The notes under the pieces: model-generated | The model's input: only the letters and a program-made list of their open reading frames with translations | Told to the model about the DNA's origin: nothing | The model's database searches: none | Translations under genes and position numbers: made by a program | Assembly: GCF_003428155.1 (NCBI RefSeq) | Contig: NZ_QLIR01000003.1 | Span: forward strand, 1-32,000 | Direction of reading: 5' to 3' | Length of the DNA: 32,000 nucleotides | Source of the DNA: Fastidiosibacter lacustris | GTDB lineage: Bacteria > Pseudomonadota > Gammaproteobacteria > Francisellales > Francisellaceae | Shown: positions 10,730 to 32,000 of the stretch, piece by piece | Layout: each line of letters begins with the position of its first letter | Numbering within the stretch: position 1 is the stretch's first letter

Positions 10730-13081
10730 ATGAATTTATATTCTAATGAAAAAATGGATATCACAGAGCTTGTCCCTGTTATTCCACTGCGTGACATTGT
10801 GGTATGTCCATATATGGCTGTTCCACTTTTTGTTGGACGGGAAAAATCGATTGCCGCAATTAGTGAAGCACATGCTACGCGCCAAAAGGTATTGCTTGTC
10901 ACCCAAAAAATAGATGATGTAGATAGCGTACATGTTAAAGATTTATATATGCTTGGTACTTATGCCAAGGTTTTACAGCTTATGAAGTTACCAGATGGTA
11001 CTTATAAGGTATTAGTAGAAGGCATAAGACGTGCTAAAGTTGAAAAATACTACGAAGATACACCCTTTATTGCTGCACAAATTCAATTAATAGAGACCAT
11101 AAATGATTTAAGTGAAGCTGATGAAAGTGGTTTTGTCCGAGCGTTACTTTCTAGTTTCAAGTCCCTTGCTGATATGGGTGGACAGGTACCAAAAGAAATA
11201 CTTTCCTCTATTTTGTCGGATAATCAGTTACCAAGAGTGATTGATACGATTCTTGCACAAGTGCAAGCATCAGTGGCTAAAAAGCAAGAAGTATTGGAAG
11301 CTCCAAATTTGCAATTAAGAGCTTCTTTGTTGCTGAAGCTTTTAGTTGCTGAAACAGAAATATTGGAGCTTGAGCGTAGTATCAAAGATCGCGTGAAGTC
11401 TCAGATTGAGCGTAATCAGCGTGAATATTACCTTAATGAGCAGATTAAAGCCATTTATAAGGAAATGGGTGATGTGGATGAAGCGCAGGAATTTGATCAG
11501 CTTAAAGAGAGGATTGAAGCGGCAAAAATGTCAAAAGAGGCTACAGAAAAAGCATTGTCTGAGATTAAAAAGTTAAAAACAATGCCGCAAGCTTCTGCTG
11601 AATCTTCAGTATCACGTAATTATATAGAAACTCTTGTTAGTCTGCCTTGGTCGAAGCGCACTAAAATCAAGAAAGATCTTAATCATGCACAAGAAATTCT
11701 AAATAGGGATCACTATGGTTTAGAAAAAGTCAAAGAACGAATCTTAGAGTATTTAGCAGTCCAACAAAGGATGCGTAAGTTAAAAGGACCGATTCTGTGT
11801 TTAGTAGGTCCTCCTGGTGTGGGTAAAACTTCGCTTGGTCAGTCGATTGCTAAAGCAACGGGTAGACGATATGTGCGTATGGCATTAGGTGGTGTTAAAG
11901 ATGAAGCCGAAATTCGTGGACATAGACGCACCTATATTGGTGCATTACCTGGTCAGATTATGCAGAAAATCAATAAGGCTCAAGTTAATAATCCATTATT
12001 TCTATTAGATGAAATAGATAAAATGTCGTCAGATTTTCGAGGTGATCCTGCTTCTGCCATGTTAGAAGTGTTAGATCCAGAACAAAACAACACTTTTAAT
12101 GATCATTATTTAGAAATTGATTATGATTTATCTGATGTAATGTTTGTAGCGACGGCTAATAGTCTTAACATTCCAGATGCGCTGCGTGATCGGATGGAAA
12201 TCATCTATCTGTCAGGTTATACCGAAGATGAGAAGCTAAACATTGCTACACGCTATCTTCTACCAAAAGCAATAAAAGATAATGGTTTAAAGCAGAATGA
12301 ACTTAGTGTATCGGCACAGGTTATTGAGGATATTATTCGCTATTATACGCGTGAGGCAGGTGTGCGGCGTTTGCAGCAAGAAATCAGTAAGCTGTGTCGC
12401 AAAGCGGTCAAACATATTTTGTCAACAAAAGATGGTAAAAAGGTATCGATTACCAGTAAGAATCTACATGAGTACCTTGGAGTACGCCGCTATGATTTTG
12501 GTTTGGCACAGAAAGAGAATAAAGTTGGACAAGTAACAGGTTTGGCTTGGACAGAGGTTGGTGGAGATTTATTGACAATTGAAGCTGTATCGACCGTGGG
12601 TAAAGGTAAGTTGAAAATAACAGGTAAGCTTGGTGACGTGATGCAAGAGTCAGTTCATGCTGCTTTTACTGTAGTTAGGACCAAAGCTCAAGAGTATGAT
12701 GTAGAAGAAGCTTTCTATGAGAAGCGTGATTTTCATATTCATGTACCAGAAGGTGCTACACCTAAAGATGGACCCAGTGCAGGTATTGCAATGTGCACAG
12801 CAATGTTATCTGCATTAACAGGTATTCCAGTAAGAAAAGATATTGCAATGACAGGTGAGATCACTTTACGTGGAGATGTGCTTGCAATTGGTGGTTTAAA
12901 GGAGAAACTACTAGCCGCACTTCGTGGTGGAATTAAGACTGTTTTAATTCCATTTGATAACAAAAAAGACTTACAAGAGATTCCACAGAACGTCAAAGAA
13001 GGTTTGGAGATTATCGCAGTAAAAACCATAGATGAAGTGTTAAAACGTGCACTTTTGCTAAAAAAAGGTCAAAAAACTTAA
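10730..13081 (+). CDS. lon: Lon protease
   Basis: Walker [10 protein letters not shown], catalytic Ser context PKDGPSAG, catalytic Lys context GGLKEK. 783 aa. Confidence 0.97.
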
Positions 13082-16646: not shown

Positions 16647-18782
16647 GTGTCTTTGACAGAAGCAGTACCAGAAATTGAATTACAAGTAGCGTCACTAGAT
16701 ATTTGGGATAGTAAATATCGCCTTAAAACACGTTTAGGTCAACCAGTTGACAAAGACATTGATGATACTTATCAGCGTGTAGCTAAGGCATTATCAGAAG
16801 TTGAGAAAACATCAACGCTTCAACAAAAGCATTATGAGGAATTTCTTTGGGCACTAAGAAATGGAGCAATTCCAGCAGGTAGAATCATCTCAAATGCAGG
16901 TGCACTTGAACATAAACCTGCAACTTCAACGATCAATTGTACAGTATCAGGCACTATTCATGATTCTATGGATGATATTTTACAGAAAGTACATGAGTCT
17001 GGCTTAACCTTGAAAGCAGGCTGTGGCATTGGTTATGAGTTTTCAACACTACGTCCTAAAGGTGGGTTTGTTGCAGGAGCAGGTGCTCATACGTCAGGTC
17101 CGTTATCTTTTATGGATATCTATGACAAAATGTGTTTTACCATAGCCTCAGCAGGTGGTAGGCGTGGTGCACAAATGGGAACATTTGATGTGGGACATCC
17201 AGATATATTTGACTTTATACGTGCTAAGCGTGAAAACGGACGTTTGCGTCAATTTAATTTATCTTTGCTGATTACCAGAGATTTCATGTATGCGGTTGAA
17301 AACGATCAGGTGTGGCATTTGGCATTTCCAATGACTGAGGCTGAGCGAAAAGCACATCAAATTGACTTAAATGATTCAACAAAAGTGTTGTGGCGTGAGT
17401 GGTCGATTAGGGATGACTATATTACCGATGATTCAGGGCTTGTGGCATGTAAAATTTATAATACTGTCAAGGCTCGTAGATTATGGGATATGATTATGTC
17501 TTCCACCTATGACTATGCTGAACCTGGATTTATTTTGATTGATAAGGTCAACGAAGAAAATAATAACTGGTTCTGTGAAACGATTCGTGCTACTAATCCA
17601 TGTGGCGAACAACCACTGCCACCTTATGGTTCATGCCTTTTAGGTTCAATTAATTTGACTAAATTTGTCGAGCATCCATTTACCAATCAAGCAAGTTTTA
17701 GTTGGGAAAGGTATCGTAAAGTGGTGCGTATCTTCACACGTATGCTTGATAACGTGGTTGAGATTAATGGCTTACCATTGCAAGAACAGCGTAATGAAAT
17801 TGAATCAAAACGTCGTCATGGCATGGGATTTTTAGGTCTAGGCTCAACGTTGAGTATGCTTAAGATGAAATATGGCGAAAAAGCTTCAATTGACTTTACA
17901 GAAGAAGTTGCAAGGCAGATGGCGCTAGAAGGTTGGCGTGAAGGTGTAGCATTGGCTAAAGAAAAAGGGAGTGCCCCTGTTTTAGAGAAAGATTATATCA
18001 TAACGGAAGAATTTTTACGTTTACGTCCCGAAATAACTGCTGATGGAATCAAAGTGGGTGATTTGGTAAAAGGACGAGTTTTACATGCAAGATACAGTCG
18101 TTATATGCAGCGCATTGCTAAAGAAGATATTTCAATCATTGATGCAATTTGTGAGCATGGTTGTCGATTTACTCACCACACCTCAATTGCTCCAACAGGT
18201 ACAATCTCGTTATCACTTGCCAATAATGTCAGCAATGGCATTGAACCAAGTTTTGCGCACCACTATTCGCGTAATGTGATAAGAGCAGGTAAAAAATCAA
18301 AAGAAAAAGTGGATGTATTTTCATATGAGCTATTAGCTTATCGTCATTTTGTCAATCAGAATGCAATACCGCATGCTAAAGATGAGGTCAATAAGTTACC
18401 AGATTACTTTATTGCAGCGGATAATGTGACGCCTAAACAACATGTTGATATTCAAGCGGCAGCTCAAAAATGGGTAGATTCGAGTATTTCTAAAACAGCA
18501 AATGTGCCAACAGACTTTCCATTTGCTGATTTTAAAGATATCTACCTTTATGCCTATCATCAGGGGCTTAAAGGCTGTACGACGTTCAGATTTAACCCTG
18601 AAGTTTTCCAAGGCGTGCTGGTTAAAGATGAGGATTTGGAAAAAACTATGTATCGCTTTACCCTCGAGGATGGCTCTGTGCTTGAGTTAAAAGGTAATGA
18701 AATGATTGAATACGATGGCGAACAGCACAGCGCTGCAAATCTCTATGATGCTTTGAAGGAGGGATATTATGGGAAATTCTAG
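16647..18782 (+). CDS. nrdJa: class II (adenosylcobalamin-dependent) ribonucleotide reductase, large N-terminal subunit NrdJa
   Basis: Active-site block TNPCGEQPLPPYGSC, SGLTLKAGCGIGYEFS, GGRRGAQMG. The track ORF starts at a TTG at 16620, but the GTG at 16647 follows AAGGAG (16635-16640) at 6-nt spacing. It ends ...LYDALKEGYYGKF without the Cys-rich C-terminal region, which is encoded separately (see nrdJb). Confidence 0.9.
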   Translation: MSLTEAVPEIELQVASLDIWDSKYRLKTRLGQPVDKDIDDTYQRVAKALSEVEKTSTLQQKHYEEFLWALRNGAIPAGRIISNAGALEHKPATSTINCTVSGTIHDSMDDILQKVHESGLTLKAGCGIGYEFSTLRPKGGFVAGAGAHTSGPLSFMDIYDKMCFTIASAGGRRGAQMGTFDVGHPDIFDFIRAKRENGRLRQFNLSLLITRDFMYAVENDQVWHLAFPMTEAERKAHQIDLNDSTKVLWREWSIRDDYITDDSGLVACKIYNTVKARRLWDMIMSSTYDYAEPGFILIDKVNEENNNWFCETIRATNPCGEQPLPPYGSCLLGSINLTKFVEHPFTNQASFSWERYRKVVRIFTRMLDNVVEINGLPLQEQRNEIESKRRHGMGFLGLGSTLSMLKMKYGEKASIDFTEEVARQMALEGWREGVALAKEKGSAPVLEKDYIITEEFLRLRPEITADGIKVGDLVKGRVLHARYSRYMQRIAKEDISIIDAICEHGCRFTHHTSIAPTGTISLSLANNVSNGIEPSFAHHYSRNVIRAGKKSKEKVDVFSYELLAYRHFVNQNAIPHAKDEVNKLPDYFIAADNVTPKQHVDIQAAAQKWVDSSISKTANVPTDFPFADFKDIYLYAYHQGLKGCTTFRFNPEVFQGVLVKDEDLEKTMYRFTLEDGSVLELKGNEMIEYDGEQHSAANLYDALKEGYYGKF

Positions 18783-18793
18783 GGAGCACAAAA

Positions 18794-19036
18794 GTGGGTA
18801 TTAATCTATTACCTGAATATGTTCGCAGGTACTACGAAATCTATGAATATAAACATGCTTGTACGATTCTCAAAGAGGACTTCCCAAATGAGTGGGCAGA
18901 TATAGTTTCGTTGCTAGAAGCCTTTAGGTTAAAGAAGAGCTGGATTATTCAATCTGGAGGGCGTAAGTCAAAGGTTGCTGAGTATATTGACAACTATTTG
19001 TACGCCATGGGGTGGGTTGAAAAGCAATTTGTTTGA
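18794..19036 (+). pseudogene. 80-aa N-terminal fragment of a BglII/BamHI/BstYI-like type II restriction endonuclease (catalytic core missing)
   Basis: YEIYEYKHACTILKEDFPNEWADIVSLLEAF...KVAEYIDNYLYAMGWVEKQF follows the N-terminal pattern I recall for BglII and BstYI (Y-x-H-x4-L ... W-x-E/D-I ... L ... GW-x-E). In those enzymes the catalytic D...E-x-Q/E block comes after this point, whereas this ORF stops at 19036 and the methyltransferase begins 13 nt later. The family assignment is from memory, not a search. Confidence 0.4.
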
Positions 19037-19049
19037 AGAGGATATTTAG

Positions 19050-19670
19050 GTGGGTGTTAAAGAAGATTTTATGAACGAACTCAAGGGGCGAAAGTTTAAA
19101 ACCATTTTAGCCGACCCTCCCTGGCAGTTTCACAATCGAACAGGTAAGGTGGCGCCAGAGCATAAAAGATTAACTCGCTATCCGACTTTGGTTTTGGATG
19201 AAATTAAGAAACTTCCTGTCGTAGAGATCGCGGATGAGACTGCACATTTGTATCTATGGGTACCCAATGCGTTGCTGGCTGAGGGACTTGAAGTCATGCA
19301 AGCCTGGGGATTTACTTATAAAACTAATTTGGTGTGGTATAAGGTGCGCAAAGATGGTGGTCCTGATCGTAGGGGCGTCGGTTTTTATTTTAGAAATGTC
19401 ACGGAAGTAATATTGTTTGGTACGCGTGGAAAAAATACACGGACTTTGCCTCCTGGGAGAAGTCAGGAAAATATTGTGTTATCAAGAAAACGCGAGCATA
19501 GCAGGAAACCTGATGAACAATATGATTTGATTGAGTCCTGCAGTGCAGGTCCTTATTTAGAGTTATTTGCCAGAGGGAGCCGAGAGAATTGGCATGCCTG
19601 GGGAAATCAAGTAGAAAATTACAGCCCTGATTGGGAGACCTATGCCAATCATTCACAGGTGTCAAAATAA
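19050..19670 (+). CDS. MT-A70 family DNA N6-adenine methyltransferase (DPPW)
   Basis: ILADPPWQF catalytic motif near the N-terminus, then HLYLWVPN, AWGFTYKTNLVWYK, FYFRNVTEVILFGTRG, EHSRKPDE and ELFARG. This is the typical block order of about 200-aa MT-A70 enzymes. The start could be the GTG at 19050 or the ATG at 19071. Confidence 0.85.
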   Translation: MGVKEDFMNELKGRKFKTILADPPWQFHNRTGKVAPEHKRLTRYPTLVLDEIKKLPVVEIADETAHLYLWVPNALLAEGLEVMQAWGFTYKTNLVWYKVRKDGGPDRRGVGFYFRNVTEVILFGTRGKNTRTLPPGRSQENIVLSRKREHSRKPDEQYDLIESCSAGPYLELFARGSRENWHAWGNQVENYSPDWETYANHSQVSK

Positions 19671-19685
19671 CTTTTGGAGCATAAA

Positions 19686-20378
19686 ATGGTCATGAAAATA
19701 GAAAAGAAAATTATTGAATTTAAAATCGTGAAACCTGAGGAAAAACTAACAAATGTTACAGTAAAGTCATTAAAAAAAGAAAAATTACATCAGCAGATGA
19801 GTGAAAATATCAAACGCCCTGAATCATTGATAGGGGAAACTTATAAGATCAAACCACCTAATGCAGAACATGCCTTATATGTCACAATCAATGATATTAT
19901 ATTGAATGAAGGTACTGAACATGAAGTACGCAGACCTTTTGAGATTTTCCTAAGTTCTAAGAATATAGAGCATTTTCAATGGACTATTGCGTTGACACTG
20001 ATTATTTCAGCTGTCTTTCGAAAAGGGGGCGACATTACTTTCCTAGTTGAGGAATTACGCTCGGTATTTGATCCAAATGGTGGATATTTAAAGCGTGGTG
20101 GTAAATATATTCCGTCCCTAGTATCAGAAATTGGCGATGTCATTGAAAAACATTTAAAGAAAATTAACATGTTACCAGCGGGTGATTTGGATGAAAGTCA
20201 AAAGCTTTTTATTGCCGCTAAACGTGAGGAATTGGATAAGCGACAGCAGCCAAGTAATGATGCAACAACTAATTTTCCACCTGAATCTCAACTGTGTACT
20301 AAGTGCAATACTAAGGCAATGATAAATATGGATAACTGTTTGACTTGTCTAAATTGTGGCTACTCTAAGTGTGGTTAG
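19686..20378 (+). CDS. nrdJb: class II ribonucleotide reductase small C-terminal subunit NrdJb
   Basis: ETYKIKPP...ALYVTINDI...RPFEIFLSSKN..HFQW..ALTLIISAVFRKGGD..FLVEEL..VFDPNGGY matches the conserved C-terminal region of long class II RNRs. The Cys-rich tail is CTKCNT...CLTCLNCGYSKCG. The ATG at 19686 follows GGAG (19676-19679), while the track starts at a TTG at 19674. Confidence 0.85.
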   Translation: MVMKIEKKIIEFKIVKPEEKLTNVTVKSLKKEKLHQQMSENIKRPESLIGETYKIKPPNAEHALYVTINDIILNEGTEHEVRRPFEIFLSSKNIEHFQWTIALTLIISAVFRKGGDITFLVEELRSVFDPNGGYLKRGGKYIPSLVSEIGDVIEKHLKKINMLPAGDLDESQKLFIAAKREELDKRQQPSNDATTNFPPESQLCTKCNTKAMINMDNCLTCLNCGYSKCG

Positions 20379-20381
20379 ACA

Positions 20382-20876
20382 ATGCTTTACGCTTTTTTCT
20401 ATCTTGCCTTTTGCACTTATCTTGGCTTATTTCTCAAAAATAAAATTGCCATCACTTTTTTAGCAGTTTCAGTACTTAGTTGGTTTATTGTCAGAATTCC
20501 TGAAATCAATGCTGATTTATGGTATCGCTTTGTGCTGATGAGTTTGTCATATGCCACAGAGTTAGCTGTTTTACTTTATTTTTTGCCAAAAAAGGTTATT
20601 GAACTTACAAGACCTAATATACAAAAAAGTTTAATTATAGCCGCTGTTTTGCTGGTAATGTTTAGCTTAGCTGTTTTTGTTAGTAGCATTTTGATTCCTT
20701 ATATGCAACAGACTCTCATGCAACAAGCAAATGTAGACATTAACGGATTATTAAGCCAAATTGGTTGGTTGTATCGCTTTGGTTCATTCGCTGGCTGGTT
20801 AAGCTTTTTTACTTATCTATACCTTTGGATTGGCTTGACAAGGTTTAATGTAAAAATTCCAGTAAGCGTTATTTAG
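20382..20876 (+). CDS. hypothetical polytopic membrane protein (about 5 TM)
   Basis: 164 aa, starting 3 nt after the nrdJb stop. About five hydrophobic helices. I recognise no family. Confidence 0.5.
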   Translation: MLYAFFYLAFCTYLGLFLKNKIAITFLAVSVLSWFIVRIPEINADLWYRFVLMSLSYATELAVLLYFLPKKVIELTRPNIQKSLIIAAVLLVMFSLAVFVSSILIPYMQQTLMQQANVDINGLLSQIGWLYRFGSFAGWLSFFTYLYLWIGLTRFNVKIPVSVI

Positions 20877-20973
20877 CATTTCCTACTAAAAAACATTGAC
20901 CTATTATCGACTGTTATCAAATCGTACTATAAAACACCATGAAAACAAAATTTGAGTTCCTGACTATTTGGGC

Positions 20974-21036: not shown

Positions 21037-22830
21037 ATGTCAAATACTGCGCTTGAGCGTAAAAGTGCGCGCTTGTGGTTAAAATCAAAAGCAAAACCAG
21101 CAAAGCGATGGATCCAATTGACTGTTTTTGTGAGTTTTACAAGTGGTTTATTGTTAATTGGTCAGTTGTATTTATTAGCACACATTTGCTATGCCGCTTT
21201 TATCGAGCACTTATCGCAAACTCAACTTATTACTTATTTTATTGGAATTGCCATGATCGTATTGATTCGGGCAGGCTTATCATGGTTAAAAGAAATAGTA
21301 AGCTTTCAGGCAGCAGCATGTGTTAAACAGCAATTAAGAGAAGATATCATCTTGCATATTAATCGCTTGGGACCCATAAAGGCATCTACAATGAGTAGTG
21401 GTGAGCTCGTAAGCTCGGCAATGGAACAAGTAGAGGGAATGAATAATTTCTTAACTCATTTTTTACCACAGGTGACACTAGCTGGACTTATGCCTTTTGC
21501 AATTTTAATATTCGTCTTTCCACAAAGCATTGTTTGTGGATTGATTTTACTTATTTGTGCGCCACTTATTCCTTTGTTTATGATGTTGGTGGGATTGGGT
21601 GCTGAGAGCGAAAATCAGAAACATTTTAAAACTTTAGGACGGATAAGCTCAGTTTTTTTAGATACATTACAAGGCTTGGCAACGATTAGGTTGTTTAACC
21701 GGAGTAAGCAGCATGCTAAAGTCATCTTTAATTACTCAGATGAATATTGTATAAAAACAATGAAAGTACTAAGAATGGCTTTTTTATCTTCGGCAGTACT
21801 AGAGGTTTTCTCAGCTGCATCTATTGCACTTGTTGCGATTTATTTGGGCATGGGATTTATCAATAGTGCAAATACACATACCATTTGGTGGGTGTTTGAT
21901 AATATGACTTTACAAGGTGGACTGTTTATTTTGCTATTAGCACCTGAGTTTTTCCTACCATTGCGTGAGTTAAGTACACATTACCATGCTAAAGCCGAAG
22001 CAGTAGGTGCTGCTCTTGAGTTGCAAAAAATATTTGATTTACAGGAGGATAAAGGAGGCGTTCAACTTCCTTTTACTGAAAACATTCAATCCATTTCATT
22101 TAATCAATTAAGCTATAGTTATCATGGTAAAAGCCAATCGGCATTAAATAATATTTCATTAACAATAACAAAAGGACAAAAGATAGCAGTTATAGGTGCA
22201 AGTGGTGCGGGTAAAACAACTGTGCTTAATTTATTGATGAAATTTATACATGAAAAAAATAATAAACTCCTTATTAATGGATATACGCCTTTAAATGACA
22301 TAAACGAAAAAGATTGGCTTAAGAAAATCAGTTGGCTTGGTCAACATGCAGGTTTATTTAAAGGTAGTATAAGGTATAACTTATTGCTTGCTAAAGAACA
22401 TGCAACAGATGATGAATTATGGCATGCGTTGACGTTGGCAGCTTTAGATAAGGAAGTCAAAACATTTGCTGATGGATTGGATACGGAGCTAGGTGAACAA
22501 AACTTAGGTTTATCAGGTGGTCAAGCCCAGCGTTTAGCATTAGCACGAGCTTACCTTAAACCATGTGAATTACTGTTATTAGATGAGCCAACAGCAAGTT
22601 TAGATGAAAAAAACGAAACACTTATCATGGAAAGTCTAATTCGAAATTGGACGGATAAAACGGTGATCATGCTCACCCATCGTTTGGCTTTTTTGTCTAA
22701 AATGGATCACATTGTGGTCATGAATGAAGGTAAGATCGTCCAGCAAGGCAGCTTAGAAAGCTTATTAGCAGAAAAGTCAGGTTTTTTTAATGCATTATAT
22801 GCGTATCATATTGATAGAGAGGTGCATTAA
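21037..22830 (+). CDS. cydD: thiol reductant (cysteine/glutathione) ABC exporter subunit CydD
   Basis: Strong block identity with E. coli CydD as recalled: APLIPLFMMLVGLGA, LRMAFLSSAVLEVF..SIALVAIYLG, APEFFLPLRELSTHYHAKAEAVGAA. Walker A GASGAGKTT, signature LSGGQAQR, Walker B LLLLDEPT. Confidence 0.9.
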   Translation: MSNTALERKSARLWLKSKAKPAKRWIQLTVFVSFTSGLLLIGQLYLLAHICYAAFIEHLSQTQLITYFIGIAMIVLIRAGLSWLKEIVSFQAAACVKQQLREDIILHINRLGPIKASTMSSGELVSSAMEQVEGMNNFLTHFLPQVTLAGLMPFAILIFVFPQSIVCGLILLICAPLIPLFMMLVGLGAESENQKHFKTLGRISSVFLDTLQGLATIRLFNRSKQHAKVIFNYSDEYCIKTMKVLRMAFLSSAVLEVFSAASIALVAIYLGMGFINSANTHTIWWVFDNMTLQGGLFILLLAPEFFLPLRELSTHYHAKAEAVGAALELQKIFDLQEDKGGVQLPFTENIQSISFNQLSYSYHGKSQSALNNISLTITKGQKIAVIGASGAGKTTVLNLLMKFIHEKNNKLLINGYTPLNDINEKDWLKKISWLGQHAGLFKGSIRYNLLLAKEHATDDELWHALTLAALDKEVKTFADGLDTELGEQNLGLSGGQAQRLALARAYLKPCELLLLDEPTASLDEKNETLIMESLIRNWTDKTVIMLTHRLAFLSKMDHIVVMNEGKIVQQGSLESLLAEKSGFFNALYAYHIDREVH

Positions 22831-24514: not shown

Positions 24515-25432
24515 ATGCAATCTTTAATACAAAGTAAAAAAGGTAAAAAAACGCATTTAAACTGCAAAGTTATGTTGGTTGTGCTTTTACTTCATATATT
24601 ACCTTATATTGCAGGTGCCAATACGACCAAAGTCATTTCGTTATCACCCAATACCACAGCAATTATTCGTAACGTTATTATGTTCGCTCAAAAAACTTCA
24701 GAAGAGGATAATGCCAAACTCATTGCCACAATTTACTATCCAGGTCAGCCAGAATATTATCAGCAATATGAAAATATCGGTTCATTCCAAGCATTAAACG
24801 TTACAAAAATATTGATGCTTAAACCAGATATTGTAATTACTTGGCAAGGGCAAACACAACCTCAAACCATCACATTGTTAGAGCGTTTTGGTATTAAAGT
24901 TAAGATATTTAATGCAGATAATTTAGAAGAACTAGGTAAGACATTTGTTGAAATAGGAACAGCTATTAATCTCAATCAAGCTGCAACTAAGTTGCAGCTT
25001 GATTTTATGCATAAAATCAATCAAGCCACCCAAAACAAAAACAAACCAAAACGTAGCATAACTTTACTTTTTCAATTAGCAGAAAAGCCCATTTTTGTAG
25101 CTGGTGGCAGTGGTATTTTAAATGACATTATCACGCGTTGTGGCGGAGAAAACGTTTTTAAAAGCATAAAGAAAGTCAGTTTTGAAACCGATGTCAGTGC
25201 GATATTAAAAGAAAATCCACAATTGATTATCATGCTTGGTACGATGAAGACAGCATGGCAAAAACAGCCAAATAGTATGTGGCAACAATGGACGTATCTT
25301 AAAGCTGTAAAAAATCACTTCGTTTATCAGCTATCATCCGATGAAATCTCCCAATTTTCCCCACAAATTGTAACTGGAATAATAAGCATGTGTGATATAC
25401 TCTCTAGCGCAAACTCACAACTACATCCTTAA
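24515..25432 (+). CDS. btuF: periplasmic substrate-binding protein, BtuF-like (vitamin B12-binding; Peripla_BP_2 type)
   Basis: VISLSPNTTAI, LKPDIVITWQG, LLERFGIKV, CGGENVF and SPQIV are colinear with E. coli BtuF as recalled. A signal-peptide-like segment MLVVLLLHILPYIAGA suggests the alternative start at 24572. Confidence 0.65.
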   Translation: MQSLIQSKKGKKTHLNCKVMLVVLLLHILPYIAGANTTKVISLSPNTTAIIRNVIMFAQKTSEEDNAKLIATIYYPGQPEYYQQYENIGSFQALNVTKILMLKPDIVITWQGQTQPQTITLLERFGIKVKIFNADNLEELGKTFVEIGTAINLNQAATKLQLDFMHKINQATQNKNKPKRSITLLFQLAEKPIFVAGGSGILNDIITRCGGENVFKSIKKVSFETDVSAILKENPQLIIMLGTMKTAWQKQPNSMWQQWTYLKAVKNHFVYQLSSDEISQFSPQIVTGIISMCDILSSANSQLHP

Positions 25433-25446
25433 GTGTAGGGGGATAT

Positions 25447-26183
25447 ATGTTACATAGTGCTTTTTTGGGGAATTATTAGGTTGTATAGTATTGATTTTAC
25501 TTGGTGGAGGTGTTGTTGCAGGGGTGCTATTAAAGCAGTCTAAAGCTGAAAATAGCGGTTGGATGGTGATTACAGCTGGCTGGGGATTTGCGGTAATGAT
25601 GGCTGTTTTTGTCGCACAAGCAGCAGGCTCAGATCAAGCAGATATTAATCCGGCAGTTACCTTGGCTAAATATTTATTAGGAGGAATTTATAACTCCATG
25701 TGGCAAGTAATTTCATTATGGTTTGCTCAGTTACTTGGCTGTTTTTTAGGAGGTGTTTTGGTATGGCTTAGCTATTACCCCCATTGGCAATATACTAAAA
25801 ATTCTCATTTTAAGCTGATGATATTTTCTACTCATCCTGCTATGCGCCATAAAGGTAGTAATTTTTTGACTGAGCTTATTGCGACAACACTTTTAATTAT
25901 TTTTGTTGGAGCGTTGATCAATTATGGCAATAAACTCCCTTTTGCTAATGGCAGCTTACCTTATGTATTTGGCTTTGCGGTGTGGGGAATTGGTCTATCT
26001 TTAGGCGGACCCACAGGTTATGCAATTAATCCAGCTAGGGACTTAGGTCCTAGAATTGCACATATGATCTTACCTATCAAAGGCAAAGGCTCAAGTGACT
26101 GGGGTTATGCCTGGGTGCCTATTTTAGCACCACTAACTGGGGCTGTTTTAGGTGTAATATTAATTCGAGTATTTATGTTTTAA
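25447..26183 (+). pseudogene. glpF: MIP-family aquaglyceroporin (GlpF-like) with a 1-nt frameshift near the 5' end
   Basis: Both NPA motifs are present (INPAVTLA, INPARDLGPR). The ATG at 25447 gives MLHSAFLGNY-stop. The main frame, readable from 25458 as CFFGELLGCIVLILLGGGVVAG, has a stop just upstream (TAG 25455-25457) and no ATG. One extra base in the T6G4 run (25461-25470) would give MLHSAFLGELLGCIVLILLGGG..., a normal MIP N-terminus. The track ORF 25491..26183 starts at an internal TTG. Confidence 0.7.
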
Positions 26184-29152: not shown

Positions 29153-29620
29153 CCCTTCCAGTATCATTTTAATGCGTGCGCGATAAACGCCTTTAAGAGA
29201 TTGAGTAGTACTTTTAGTCTTGATTTGTATGGTGTGAAGTGTATTTTGGGTAAGCTCAGTGCCCAGTTGAGATATATCTTTACCATCCGCGGTCACGATA
29301 AGTGGTAATGTAGGAGGTGATTCAGGACTATTTTTATGCGAGGATAGTTTTATTAAGCTTGGTTCTGCTTTTAAGCGTAGCTTGGCAGGATCTTTTAATT
29401 GTAATTTCCAGAAATCTTCTTCACTTGTCAAATACATCCCATCACGCTGTTGATTTTTATTCATTATATGAAAGTTTTGTTTTGAAACAAATTGAGCTTC
29501 TGTTGTTACTGTCGGAATGTATACAGTTGCAGTAATCCTGATTTGAGTGCTTTGTTGTTCTGCAAAGTGTGGGTTTATAGTCATAAATATACCTAAGAGT
29601 ATTAAGTTAACAGGTTTCAT
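29144..29620 (-). CDS. small secreted protein, possibly a pilin-like (CS1/CFA-I-type) beta-sandwich subunit
   Basis: Strong SD (AAGGAGAG) before the ATG and a signal peptide MKPVNLILLGIFMTINPHFA. Mature N-terminus QIRITATVYIP and C-terminal GVYRARIKMILEGLW loosely resemble the N- and C-terminal strands of class 5 pilins (from memory only). No chaperone or usher gene is present in the window. Confidence 0.55.
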   Translation of the reverse strand: MKPVNLILLGIFMTINPHFAEQQSTQIRITATVYIPTVTTEAQFVSKQNFHIMNKNQQRDGMYLTSEEDFWKLQLKDPAKLRLKAEPSLIKLSSHKNSPESPPTLPLIVTADGKDISQLGTELTQNTLHTIQIKTKSTTQSLKGVYRARIKMILEGLW

Positions 29621-29884
29621 ATTTTACTCTCCTTGTTAGATTGAATTAAGCTAATTCTAATCAGAGTATAGGATTAATTTAGGCAAATAATGTATTTTGT
29701 GTAGCCAGAAAATATTTTTTCACTTTTTTATAATTTATATTTTTAAAAAAATATCTAAAAGCATCTTTAATTTGACCATTTAATTTTAAAAAGGCTATAA
29801 ACACCGTATTTTTTTAAAATTTAATACGGTTATATAAAAAGGAAGTTTCATTTATAATTTAACTCGTAGGATATTGGGGAGTTT

Positions 29885-29894: not shown

Positions 29895-29969
29895 TTGTTA
29901 TAGTCTGTTTGAGGATATATAACAGGTCGAAATACAAGTTAAAAAAGCTTAAATTGTATAAGGTGGGGG

Positions 29970-32000
29970 ATGATAAATTATTCATATTTGAAAGCTGGTC
30001 ATAAAGGAATTCGTTTAGTTATTTGTACAGCAATTTTAACTGCTTGTGGTGGTAGAAGCGATACAAGCAGTGCACCAATCAAGGCAGAAATTAACCCAAG
30101 CAAAAGTGTATTATTAACAACGGTTTCAGGTGGTCAGCCACTAATATTAAGAACAAATCCAAGTCATATTTTACCGTATGATCTTTTGTGGACATTAGAA
30201 GGTCCGGGTAGCTTAGCTATGATTGATAGATTTAGCCCTAATGCCATCAACAATACGCATTATGGGATGGCGATTAGATATACGCCACCTGAATTTGGCG
30301 TTTCAGATACAGATACAATTGCAAAAGTGACAGTATTCCATAAAAAATCAACTGATAAAGTAGGTCTTTTAGACCAGCGTAACATTGCGTCAGCAGATGC
30401 TTATACCTTTGAAATTAAACTTAATCCTAAAGTGGATTCTAGTTTTTCAATGCCTTATGGTATTGCGTATGATTCTGTTTATAACAGATTATTCGTAACA
30501 GATATTAAATCAGGTAATTTGCGTATTATTGATGGCAAAGGAGTTGTTACGACAGCTGATCTGAAATCTGTCAATCGTGATGGATCGTTGGTAGGATATA
30601 AACTTGTTCGCCCGACTGGCATTACGGTTCACCCAAAAACCGGCAATGTTTTTATTGCTGAGTCTAACCGTAATATTGTGGAACTTTCAAAAGTGAATAA
30701 AAATGACTCAAGCCAATGGATTGTTCGTACGGTTTGGCAAGAGCAAGATGAAACAATATTAGTAGAAAATATATTTGAGGACCCCAAACACTCTAATGCG
30801 CGCGTAGAATATAATCCACATAATCGTCCAGCAAAAACAGGCTATACGATCGATGGTGTGGCTTTGTCTATTACTGAACAAGGTGATCAAAAAGCCAGGC
30901 TGAATTTTCAATTACCTGGTGATAATAGTTTATTTTCAGCTACCTTGCTTAGCACCCTTGAAGATGCGTCATATTCGTATGATGTGTTAAGTTCAAGTTT
31001 AACAGGTAACAATGCCACTCAATATCGACCGGGATTAAAAATTGAAACATCCTTCCCTTATTACACATATTTAGTATATGAACCTTATAACAACGTAAAT
31101 TCATTCATCGGTCGCATTATTCCATGGTCAGCAACCATCAGTAATGTATTAACTCAAAATTGGTGGAGTTCAAGGGCTATCTTAAATTTGGCAGCTGGTG
31201 CTGGTGGTCCCCCATTTGCAACTATCCCAACGGTTGCTTTAAATAACCCTACTATCCAAGCCTATAATAATACAGGTGTTCATATTGGGATTGGCTCGAG
31301 TGGGAATTCATGGAAAAGTGACTTGGATATTAGAATTCATAGCGCAATGATAAAACGTAAAGATGAGAAAGCTTTAAGATACGTCTTTAGTCGTGCTTTT
31401 GGTCAGATCACTTTTGATCAAGATGGTCATTTATATCTAGCAGACACCATGAATAATCGTATTGCGAAATTATCACAAAATGATGAAGGTATATGGCAGA
31501 TGTCTGTAATTGCAGGGGGGGGGAGCGGACAGTGGTCATCGTTCAGGGTTTGTGGACGGTGATGCACTGACTGCAAGGTTTAACCAGCCATCAGGTATTG
31601 CTGTTGATTATAGTGGTAATATTTTTATTGCTGATACCAATAATCATGCAATCCGTTTAATCACAACAAAAGACGAGAGTGTAATGGTGAAAACAATTGC
31701 AGGCAAAGGAGCAAATAATAATTGCACGCGTAATTTTAATGGCTCTGGCGATTGTGATGGAGATGAATCAACAGCAACGGCATTTAGTTATCCTACTCAA
31801 TTGTCGTGGGATGATGATACTAATCATTTATGGGTTACAGATAGTGGTAACCATAAATTGCGGAAAATAACAAATATCAATCAGAACAAAGAAGCTGATC
31901 AAGCTAATTCTGTCAATGAGGTGACTAGTGCTATAGGTCAGGGATCATCTCAGCCAGGTTGCATAGACGGTTTTGGTTCAAATAATTCTGAAAGTCAGCA
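29970..32000 (+). pseudogene. large NHL-repeat surface lipoprotein, interrupted by a frameshift in a G9 tract; continues past the window end
   Basis: Lipobox AILTAC|G. NHL-type repeats: FSMPYGIAYDSVYNRLFVTD, LVRPTGITVHPKTGNVFIAE, FGQITFDQDGHLYLADTMNNRIAKL. After the frameshift, in frame +1: FNQPSGIAVDYSGNIFIADTNNHAIRLI and FSYPTQLSWDDDTNHLWVTDSGNHKLRKI. The first frame stops at 31560-31562. The second frame is open from 31510 to 32000. Confidence 0.8.
31515..31523 (+). repeat. G9 homopolymeric tract at the frameshift point of the NHL lipoprotein gene
   Basis: Counted directly: nine consecutive G at 31515-31523 in an AT-rich genome. G8 (or G11) would fuse the two reading frames into ...VIAGGGADSGHRSGFVDGDALTARFNQPSGIAVD... 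Confidence 0.9.

Follow-up and report, generated by a model that had tools for sequence, protein, structure and literature searches.

The first 32,000 nucleotides (nt) of contig NZ_QLIR01000003.1 of Fastidiosibacter lacustris, here termed the window, contain a gene for a predicted lipoprotein with NHL repeats whose reading frame is broken at a run of G residues. The run consists of nine consecutive Gs at positions 31515–31523 of the plus strand, in the context ATTGCA-GGGGGGGGG-AGCGGACAG, and is the sole G or C run of at least 7 nt in the window, whose base composition is 36.1% G+C; the runner-up is one G6. With nine Gs the open reading frame (ORF) extends from 29970 to 31562 on the plus strand, encodes 530 amino acids (aa; P0001) and terminates at the TGA at 31560–31562, 13 codons past the tract. 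A preliminary description of this DNA had placed the run where the 530-aa ORF breaks and had considered it a candidate phase-variable site; the exact position is confirmed here.

When the gene is rebuilt in silico with 6–12 Gs, the frame of the G8 and G11 versions has no stop before the end of the window (676 codons), and those with G6, G7, G9, G10 and G12 reach a stop at codons 529–533. Removal of one G thus does join the ORF to the open frame downstream, as had been suggested. The off-frame TGA is trailed by a TAA six codons later, and therefore a reassignment of UGA is irrelevant to the frame break. The downstream part in the G8 reading occupies 31525–32000 of the plus strand and continues past the window end. 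In F. lacustris it is annotated as a protein of its own (P0084; 224 aa, TTG start at 31510, C-terminal end ...DKDGVAVGF), and beyond position 32000 the gene is known through P0084 only. In the joined gene the tract makes up codons 516–518 of about 737 and encodes the Gly-Gly-Gly of the sequence 'IAGGG', which opens NHL unit 4.

A Shine-Dalgarno-like sequence, AAGGTGGGGG, read from the DNA at 29958–29969 of the plus strand, abuts the ATG. The upstream ORF then encodes a signal peptide and about 130 aa of N-terminal region, followed by NHL blades 1–3, the second and third of which are separated by an insertion of about 230 aa. The lipobox, L-T-A-C, is at residues 23–26 (30036–30047, plus strand), behind a basic n-region (K8, K12, R15) and a hydrophobic h-region; read by eye, the N-terminus MINYSYLKAGHKGIRLVICTAILTAC fits the lipobox pattern [LVI][ASTVI][GAS]C. 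The product is therefore predicted to be a lipoprotein, and it would presumably be exposed at the surface.

Compared with the Pfam NHL family (PF01436), the joined protein scores 83 bits (cut-off 20; E = 7e-24) over four stretches, the best of which (residues 537–562) is downstream of the tract. The joined sequence does read as NHL, in agreement with the preliminary description. Six NHL units can be delineated, at residues 157–187, 204–237, 479–501, 518–565, 590–633 and 668–708, and three of the six lie upstream of the tract. An AlphaFold model that leaves off the last 60 residues, which are outside the window, has a mean pLDDT (predicted local distance difference test score) of 53; the blades score 80–93, and the N-terminal region and the insertion score below 50. 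With Foldseek the model matches complete six-bladed propellers (Pizza6, PknD, TRIM and teneurin NHL domains) at template modelling (TM) scores of 0.72–0.79. The matches to Pizza6 and PknD (TM 0.75–0.79) extend over about 480 alignment columns on both sides of the tract. According to the model, then, the NHL repeats close into a single six-bladed propeller. Homologues of the N-terminal and insertion regions were not found by a word-indexed search or by an exhaustive HMMER search of 1.84 billion representatives, which gave NHL-repeat matches only.

The model bears on what an off-frame allele would produce. A truncated lipoprotein with about half of the repeats had been proposed for such an allele, and as to the repeats this stands, as blades 1–3 of six are upstream. 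However, on the basis of the model these blades are half of one propeller, accompanied by unmodelled regions, and do not make up a self-contained domain. The truncated product is probably non-functional as a propeller.

The choice of codons at the tract is unusual. The window's 21 other ORFs contain 525 Gly codons, of which 8.8% are GGG, and 39 Gly-Gly pairs, none of which is encoded by GGG-GGG. The tract is read as GGG-GGG-GGA, and the gene's other three Gly-Gly pairs are all GGT-GGT. Thus the same protein sequence could be encoded without a run of Gs.

A second allele in the sister strain

The protein cluster that includes the 530-aa product holds one other member, a 531-aa protein ending in ...VIAGGERTVVIVQGLWTVMH, which is the reading of a G7 or a G10 tract. 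It is encoded on contig JAMBMW010000007.1 (assembly GCA_024208055.1) of 'Candidatus Nebulobacter yamunensis', hereafter Nebulobacter, an obligate endosymbiont of the ciliate Euplotes aediculatus (PMC9837558). The cultivable sister strain with which it has been compared is F. lacustris SYSU HZH-2, at an average nucleotide identity of 99.38% (PMC9837558). The Nebulobacter locus (L001) has seven Gs at the same site, and the flanks are identical to those of F. lacustris. A comparison of tract length with a related strain, which the preliminary description had proposed, thus yields G9 versus G7 in two independently sequenced strains that are about 99% identical. The alleles flank the in-frame length, one step above it and one step below, and are off-frame in different frames.

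Homopolymers are a classic site of indel errors, and G tracts in deposited sequences have proved to differ in length from those of the real population (PMC9187656). It might be asked whether one strain or both in reality have G8, the deposited G9 and G7 being homopolymer miscalls that arose in sequencing or assembly. Two assemblies would then have to err in opposite directions. In addition, the G7 allele is reproduced by an independent Logan assembly of run SRR18916696, where a contig of 1483 bp (L085) is 100% identical to L001 over 1464 nt, G7 included, with the tract unbroken. A control was provided by alignment of the window with Nebulobacter loci over 19.2 kb (19,162 nt): of 61 A/T runs of at least 6 nt, 60 are concordant between the assemblies, and one differs (T6/T7 at window 25455–25460). 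Homopolymer error is therefore not widespread in either assembly. Coverage of the assemblies was 100x and 46x (PMC9837558), and Illumina homopolymer error is low at 7–9 nt (PMC4514472). Opposite miscalls in two assemblies, one of them repeated by a third assembler, are unlikely, and an artefact is in our estimation a very improbable source of the length difference.

Another Logan contig from SRR18916696 (L083) is identical to window 19799–20910, a stretch without difference between the strains. Judged by its contig sequences, this run contains a Nebulobacter-type organism.

The 19.2-kb alignment has 52 substitution columns, a divergence of about 0.27%, and four indel events, three of which are in or at the NHL lipoprotein gene. 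Two slippage steps set against about 0.27% substitutions point to a slippage rate hundreds of times the per-base substitution rate. The two indels of the gene other than the tract are both of 3 nt and keep the frame. With the tract set to G8 the gene has 736 codons in Nebulobacter and 737 in F. lacustris, and no other stop in either. Further disabling mutations, which would have pointed to a plain pseudogene, were sought downstream, and none was found in the roughly 737 codons of either strain.

Substitutions between the strains are unevenly placed. All of those in the gene are in one segment of 745 nt, at 30364–31109, which contains about ten events, dinucleotide changes included: eight replacements, one of which is the in-frame change SFPYY to LSPY, and two synonymous changes. 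The remaining ~1.4 kb of the gene has no substitutions. From the tract onward P0084 is identical to the Nebulobacter protein, with no differences in 210–224 codons; at the mean rate of the N-terminal part about four downstream events would be expected. The replacement to synonymous ratio is 8:2 in this gene versus 4:7 in the flanking genes (1:5 in valS alone), and it would fit an exposed, diversifying protein. Such clustering suggests either that selection has been diversifying or that a patch was imported by recombination. A search for a nearby template from which the changes could have been copied by a quasi-palindrome mechanism gave none.

These data bear on the possibility of a young pseudogene, i.e. 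one in which a mutation-prone run caused inactivation, once in the common ancestor or separately in each strain, with the tract drifting neutrally and the rest of the gene intact for lack of time. Both known alleles are off-frame, the 8:2 ratio fits relaxed constraint, and chance alone would place one or two long runs of G in each genome. In addition, 129–191 pseudogenes are predicted per genome, of which 79 are common to both (PMC9837558). The start site is also altered: where the window has GGGGG-ATG (29965–29972), Nebulobacter has GGGGG-ACA-TTG (L001 9996–10006), a 3-nt insertion that weakens the start codon to TTG and lengthens the Shine-Dalgarno spacing. However, the untranslated part of a decaying gene would be expected to drift at least as fast as the rest, and here it is the best conserved; this speaks against decay. 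It should also be pointed out that every non-tract indel preserves the frame, that the substitutions are confined to one segment instead of being spread, and that one allele is a single G longer, and the other a single G shorter, than the in-frame G8. The run-creating codon choice, together with a hairpin that looks selected (see below), also points to function. On balance a pseudogene is unlikely, although it is to be taken seriously.

A hairpin in the mRNA next to the tract

The mRNA around the tract was folded as a test of ribosomal frameshifting as a rival explanation. The sense-strand RNA forms a strong hairpin directly 3′ of the tract, which had been overlooked in the preliminary description. 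The hairpin extends from 31525 to 31574 on the plus strand and has 20 bp, including three G.U pairs, and a folding energy of -27.4 kcal/mol. It consists of an outer stem of 4 bp (5′ arm 31525–31528), a main stem of 16 bp (5′ arm 31530–31545) with one bulge on the 3′ side, a loop of 7 nt (31546–31552) and a 3′ arm at 31553–31574. The structure begins 1 nt (outer stem) to 6 nt (main stem) past the tract. Both off-frame stops (31560–31562 and 31568–31570) are in the 3′ arm.

Relative to dinucleotide shuffles the hairpin has a z of -5.55. It ranks first among 6388 plus-strand windows of 60 nt in the 32 kb, the second best being -23.4 kcal/mol; the best fold on the minus strand, at -23.0 kcal/mol, is also weaker. 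Recoding of the same 18 aa with the codon usage of the window gives a mean of -12.7 kcal/mol (standard deviation 3.0), and none of 5000 recodings is equally stable; with uniform synonymous choice 0.1% of recodings are. The stem is built from rare codons, namely GCG, GAC (twice), GGG and CTG. The antisense RNA folds at only -12.0 kcal/mol (z = -1.8), and as single-stranded DNA the plus strand gives -10.9 kcal/mol (z = -3.3) and the minus strand a z of -0.7. Thus, by strand specificity and by the recoding statistics, the hairpin looks selected at the mRNA level. The hairpin is taken to be real and is probably functional. As to its effect, we infer that, besides or instead of slippage in the DNA, it may cause ribosomes to shift frame or to pause.

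Several other roles were considered and rejected. An intrinsic terminator is not supported, as there is no U tract and a terminator scan shows none at this position. Polarity or RNase III cleavage specific to the ON or OFF state is unlikely because both OFF stops are in the 3′ arm; ribosomes would therefore melt the stem in every allele. A DNA cruciform is not the main explanation, since the three G.U pairs make the structure strand-specific. The arm is not a repeated element, and by eye only about 4 bp are possible for a pseudoknot with the hairpin loop. There is no Rfam match in the window, the hairpin included.

The arrangement invites a reading in which recoding is primary, i.e. a programmed frameshift of the dnaX or insertion sequence (IS) type that keeps truncated and full-length product at a fixed ratio, with G7 and G9 representing mutation of the site. 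The hairpin is canonical in position and strength and specific to the mRNA strand. Stimulatory structures of -1 frameshifting generally begin 5–8 nt past the slippery motif (PMC4066793), and this spacing is observed: the main stem is 5 nt from the heptamer G_GGG_GGA of a G8 allele. This heptamer, which is hypothetical, re-pairs fully in the -1 frame, where a stop follows 12 codons on, within the hairpin. The G7 allele, with the imperfect heptamer A_GGG_GGG, would give the full-length protein upon a -1 shift, and both strains are off-frame, as are fusion genes of the orfA-orfB type. Against this, programmed sites keep their length, and here there is a 2-nt difference between strains that are about 99% identical. 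The shifts needed also differ: -1 for G7, and -2 or +1 for G9, whose heptamer G_GGG_GGG leads upon a -1 shift to a dead end. All-G heptamers are very poor shifters in Escherichia coli (PMC4066793). In addition, no Shine-Dalgarno-like stimulator is seen 6–17 nt upstream when the sequence is read, the Rfam comparison gave no match, and no homologue was found in which conservation could be gauged. A programmed frameshift as the primary explanation is thus improbable.

Two further hairpins occur in coding regions of the window. At ~24970–25005, in a Peripla_BP_2 gene, there is a perfect palindrome of ~14 bp with a 3-nt loop, which folds at about -23 kcal/mol on both strands. At ~11310–11350, in lon, a 15-bp stem (-23.4 kcal/mol) is found beside a 16-nt tandem repeat.

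Proposed mechanism and comparison with known systems

The reading that we favour, with slightly better than even confidence, is that the tract is a genuine hypermutable frameshift site of the contingency type, and that the lipoprotein gene around it is maintained intact. The strains would then represent two off-frame states, and the abutting hairpin may add slippage or pausing. Gain or loss of G during DNA replication would decide whether the ribosome stays in the full-length frame (with G8 or G11) or enters one of two dead-end frames, in which it meets a stop 13–16 codons on. The full-length product would be an NHL beta-propeller lipoprotein of about 737 aa, and the G9 allele of F. lacustris and the G7 allele of Nebulobacter would both make mainly the truncated lipoprotein with blades 1–3. 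For the tract we infer both reversibility and a rate of switching. The hairpin, in turn, would hold a ribosome that decodes the Gs, its entry channel being at the base of the main stem, and would thereby promote slippage on the very same run. Either the OFF alleles would be leaky, with G7 returning to the full-length frame via -1 and G9 via -2 or +1, or, in a G8 allele, which would combine G_GGG_GGA, the 5-nt spacer and the stem, part of the ribosomes would enter the frame that stops after 12 codons, and a second, truncated isoform would result as in dnaX.

The phase-variable locus put forward in the preliminary description draws support from the length difference between strains, the otherwise intact gene, the lipobox, neighbours of the colonization type (see below) and a run that the protein does not require. 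A number of findings nevertheless weigh against it. Two genomes are known, and both are off-frame; no in-frame G8 or G11 allele turned up in protein searches, two genome-contig scans and two metagenome scans. The same genome-contig and metagenome scans contained no relatives of the gene, and in the scanned contig collection the nearest genomes are at most 59–62% identical, as judged by a scan with valS. Deposited G-tract lengths can also misrepresent the population (PMC9187656). The tract is at 70% of the ORF and not near the 5′ end, the part toward which phase-variable repeats are typically enriched (5′ or N-terminal; PMC3315296). A search for other poly-G/C tracts, suggested earlier for the whole genome, was run on the window and on about 35 kb of the sister strain, and gave no further G/C run of at least 7 nt. 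Hence there is no sign of a wider phase-variable gene set in the ~67 kb sampled.

Chance must also be considered. A first-order Markov model predicts 0.022 G/C runs of at least 9 nt in 32 kb, and the earlier statement that G9 is unlikely by chance holds for the window. It does not hold for the genome, where the Markov value, scaled to 2.07 Mb (genome size from PMC9837558), gives about 1.4 such runs. The run is thus striking in the window, but by itself it is not significant genome-wide; its weight derives from the coincidence with the frame break, the length difference between strains and the codon choice. In addition, the 8:2 ratio of replacement to synonymous changes is one that neutral decay would also be expected to leave. 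As regards the hairpin, it is identical in both strains and offers no covariation evidence. Motifs of the form G_GG.G_GG.N are among the poorest -1 shifters of E. coli, G_GG.G_GG.U shifting at 0.018% without a stimulator (PMC4066793). Since the alleles need different shifts and all-G motifs are weak, an efficient programmed frameshift is doubtful.

A more speculative extension, to which we give a small chance, is that the G run and the hairpin form a two-layer device. DNA slippage would set the allele (G7, G8 or G9), and ribosomes stalled by the hairpin would slip in addition, which would give a graded mix of full-length and truncated protein, or a dnaX-like pair of products from G8. We know of no description of a slippery run whose length varies in the DNA and which at the same time has the geometry of a frameshift cassette. 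Should this device be real, length-variable sites of this kind could be among the 'undetected' differences between cultivable and endosymbiotic strains.

Intragenic poly-G/C tracts are known from phase-variable genes of Campylobacter jejuni, Neisseria and Helicobacter. In the CT166 cytotoxin gene of Chlamydia trachomatis, which has a G9/G10 tract, the off-frame allele is dominant in isolates (PMC4514472). G tracts split pilus genes in Bifidobacterium breve, and the majority allele of bbr_0113 is off-frame (PMC9187656). The locus described here resembles such contingency loci in several ways: a G run of 7–9 or more is inside an ORF for an envelope or host-interaction protein, a change of one G toggles the frame, the length varies between close strains, and the majority sequenced allele can be off-frame, as in CT166 and bbr_0113. 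It differs in that the tract is not 5′-proximal, no in-frame allele or population heterogeneity is documented, no second tract accompanies it in the sampled sequence, and a very strong mRNA hairpin adjoins it. A poly-G contingency-type locus is itself a known kind; the abutting hairpin is the feature without counterpart in descriptions of known examples.

With the -1 frameshift cassettes of dnaX and of IS3/IS911 orfAB the locus shares a putatively slippery homopolymer, a short spacer, a stable downstream stem-loop and an early stop in the alternative frame, and here, too, a single gene is predicted to yield two products, one short and one long. Unlike these cassettes, the locus has an all-G run whose length is not conserved, no Shine-Dalgarno-like stimulator upstream, and a shift that depends on the allele. 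In 2008 Tamas et al. reportedly described in PNAS frameshifted endosymbiont genes that are rescued by polymerase slippage at poly(A) tracts. These too have a homopolymer frameshift in an endosymbiont genome with the downstream frame intact. However, slippage of RNA polymerase is expected to be weaker on a G run, and here the free-living sister is frameshifted also.

As to the protein, the Pfam NHL repeats and the TM scores of 0.72–0.79 liken it to the six-bladed NHL propellers of the PknD sensor domain (1RWI), the designed Pizza6 and the Bacteroides proteins 3TC9 and 4HW6. The latter, termed 'auxiliary nutrient binding' proteins, are also lipoproteins. The protein described here differs from PknD, Pizza6 and the Bacteroides proteins by its ~230-aa insertion, which follows blade 2, and its ~130-aa N-terminal region. 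The literature searched contained no report of a phase-variable NHL protein, nor of repeat-mediated switching in Fastidiosibacteraceae.

F. lacustris is cultivable and Nebulobacter is an obligate endosymbiont; their genomes are 99.4% identical, and no difference that would explain the lifestyles has been found (PMC9837558). When gene content is compared, differences of the type described here, a G tract of variable length within a lipoprotein gene that adjoins a mucinase-like protease and a type IVb-pilus-like cluster, are overlooked. The NHL lipoprotein gene is not recognizable in the supplementary pseudogene tables of that study (PMC9837558). It should be pointed out that both strains are off-frame, and therefore the locus alone does not explain the difference in lifestyle. 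The finding does indicate that slippage-type variation exists in this lineage, and the tract offers a cheap, testable marker. The hairpin that abuts it is of separate interest for research on recoding.

Neighbouring genes and other differences between the strains

In Nebulobacter (L001 12243–21596) a 1048-aa Peptidase_M66/TagA lipoprotein gene starts 32 nt past the NHL gene and is followed by genes for TcpQ, a secretin and a T2SSE ATPase. The layout TcpQ-secretin-T2SSE is that of a toxin-coregulated-pilus-type (type IVb) cluster, and recalls tagA and the toxin-coregulated pilus operon of Vibrio cholerae. A gene named tcpT_2 is listed as a pseudogene in Nebulobacter and as intact in Fastidiosibacter (PMC9837558 table). 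A terminator scan shows no terminator-like site between the NHL gene and the protease gene. It is possible, from this arrangement, that the two genes are co-transcribed and that the off-frame alleles are polar on the protease gene.

A block that differs between the strains lies immediately upstream of the NHL gene; in the window it is 360 nt (29361–29721) and includes part of a 158-aa minus-strand ORF without Pfam match. The same block in Nebulobacter (L001 6413–9749) is 3.3 kb, and contains two ORFs of unknown function and an Xre-HTH/RES toxin-antitoxin pair. A second block, at window 18776–19673, contains an ORF for a DNA methyltransferase of the MT-A70 family (19050–19670, Pfam E = 1.4e-32). 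The matching place in Nebulobacter (L082 7322–9292) is taken by a 602-aa AAA_21/ABC-type ATPase. By its gene content this site looks like a swapped variable island, possibly one related to defence.

The MIP/GlpF channel gene is intact in the window (25491–26183, 230 aa), and the T6/T7 difference mentioned above (25455–25460) is just upstream of it. In Nebulobacter glpF is split into ORFs of 55 aa and 121 aa (L001 2634–3235), and about 126 nt are lost at window 25611–25735; this agrees with the glpF_1/glpF_2 split given in Table S2d of PMC9837558. Lastly, the ABC transporter gene at 21037–22830 ends with TAA at 22828–22830 in the window, where Nebulobacter has TCA, and the products are 597 and 601 aa in length, respectively.

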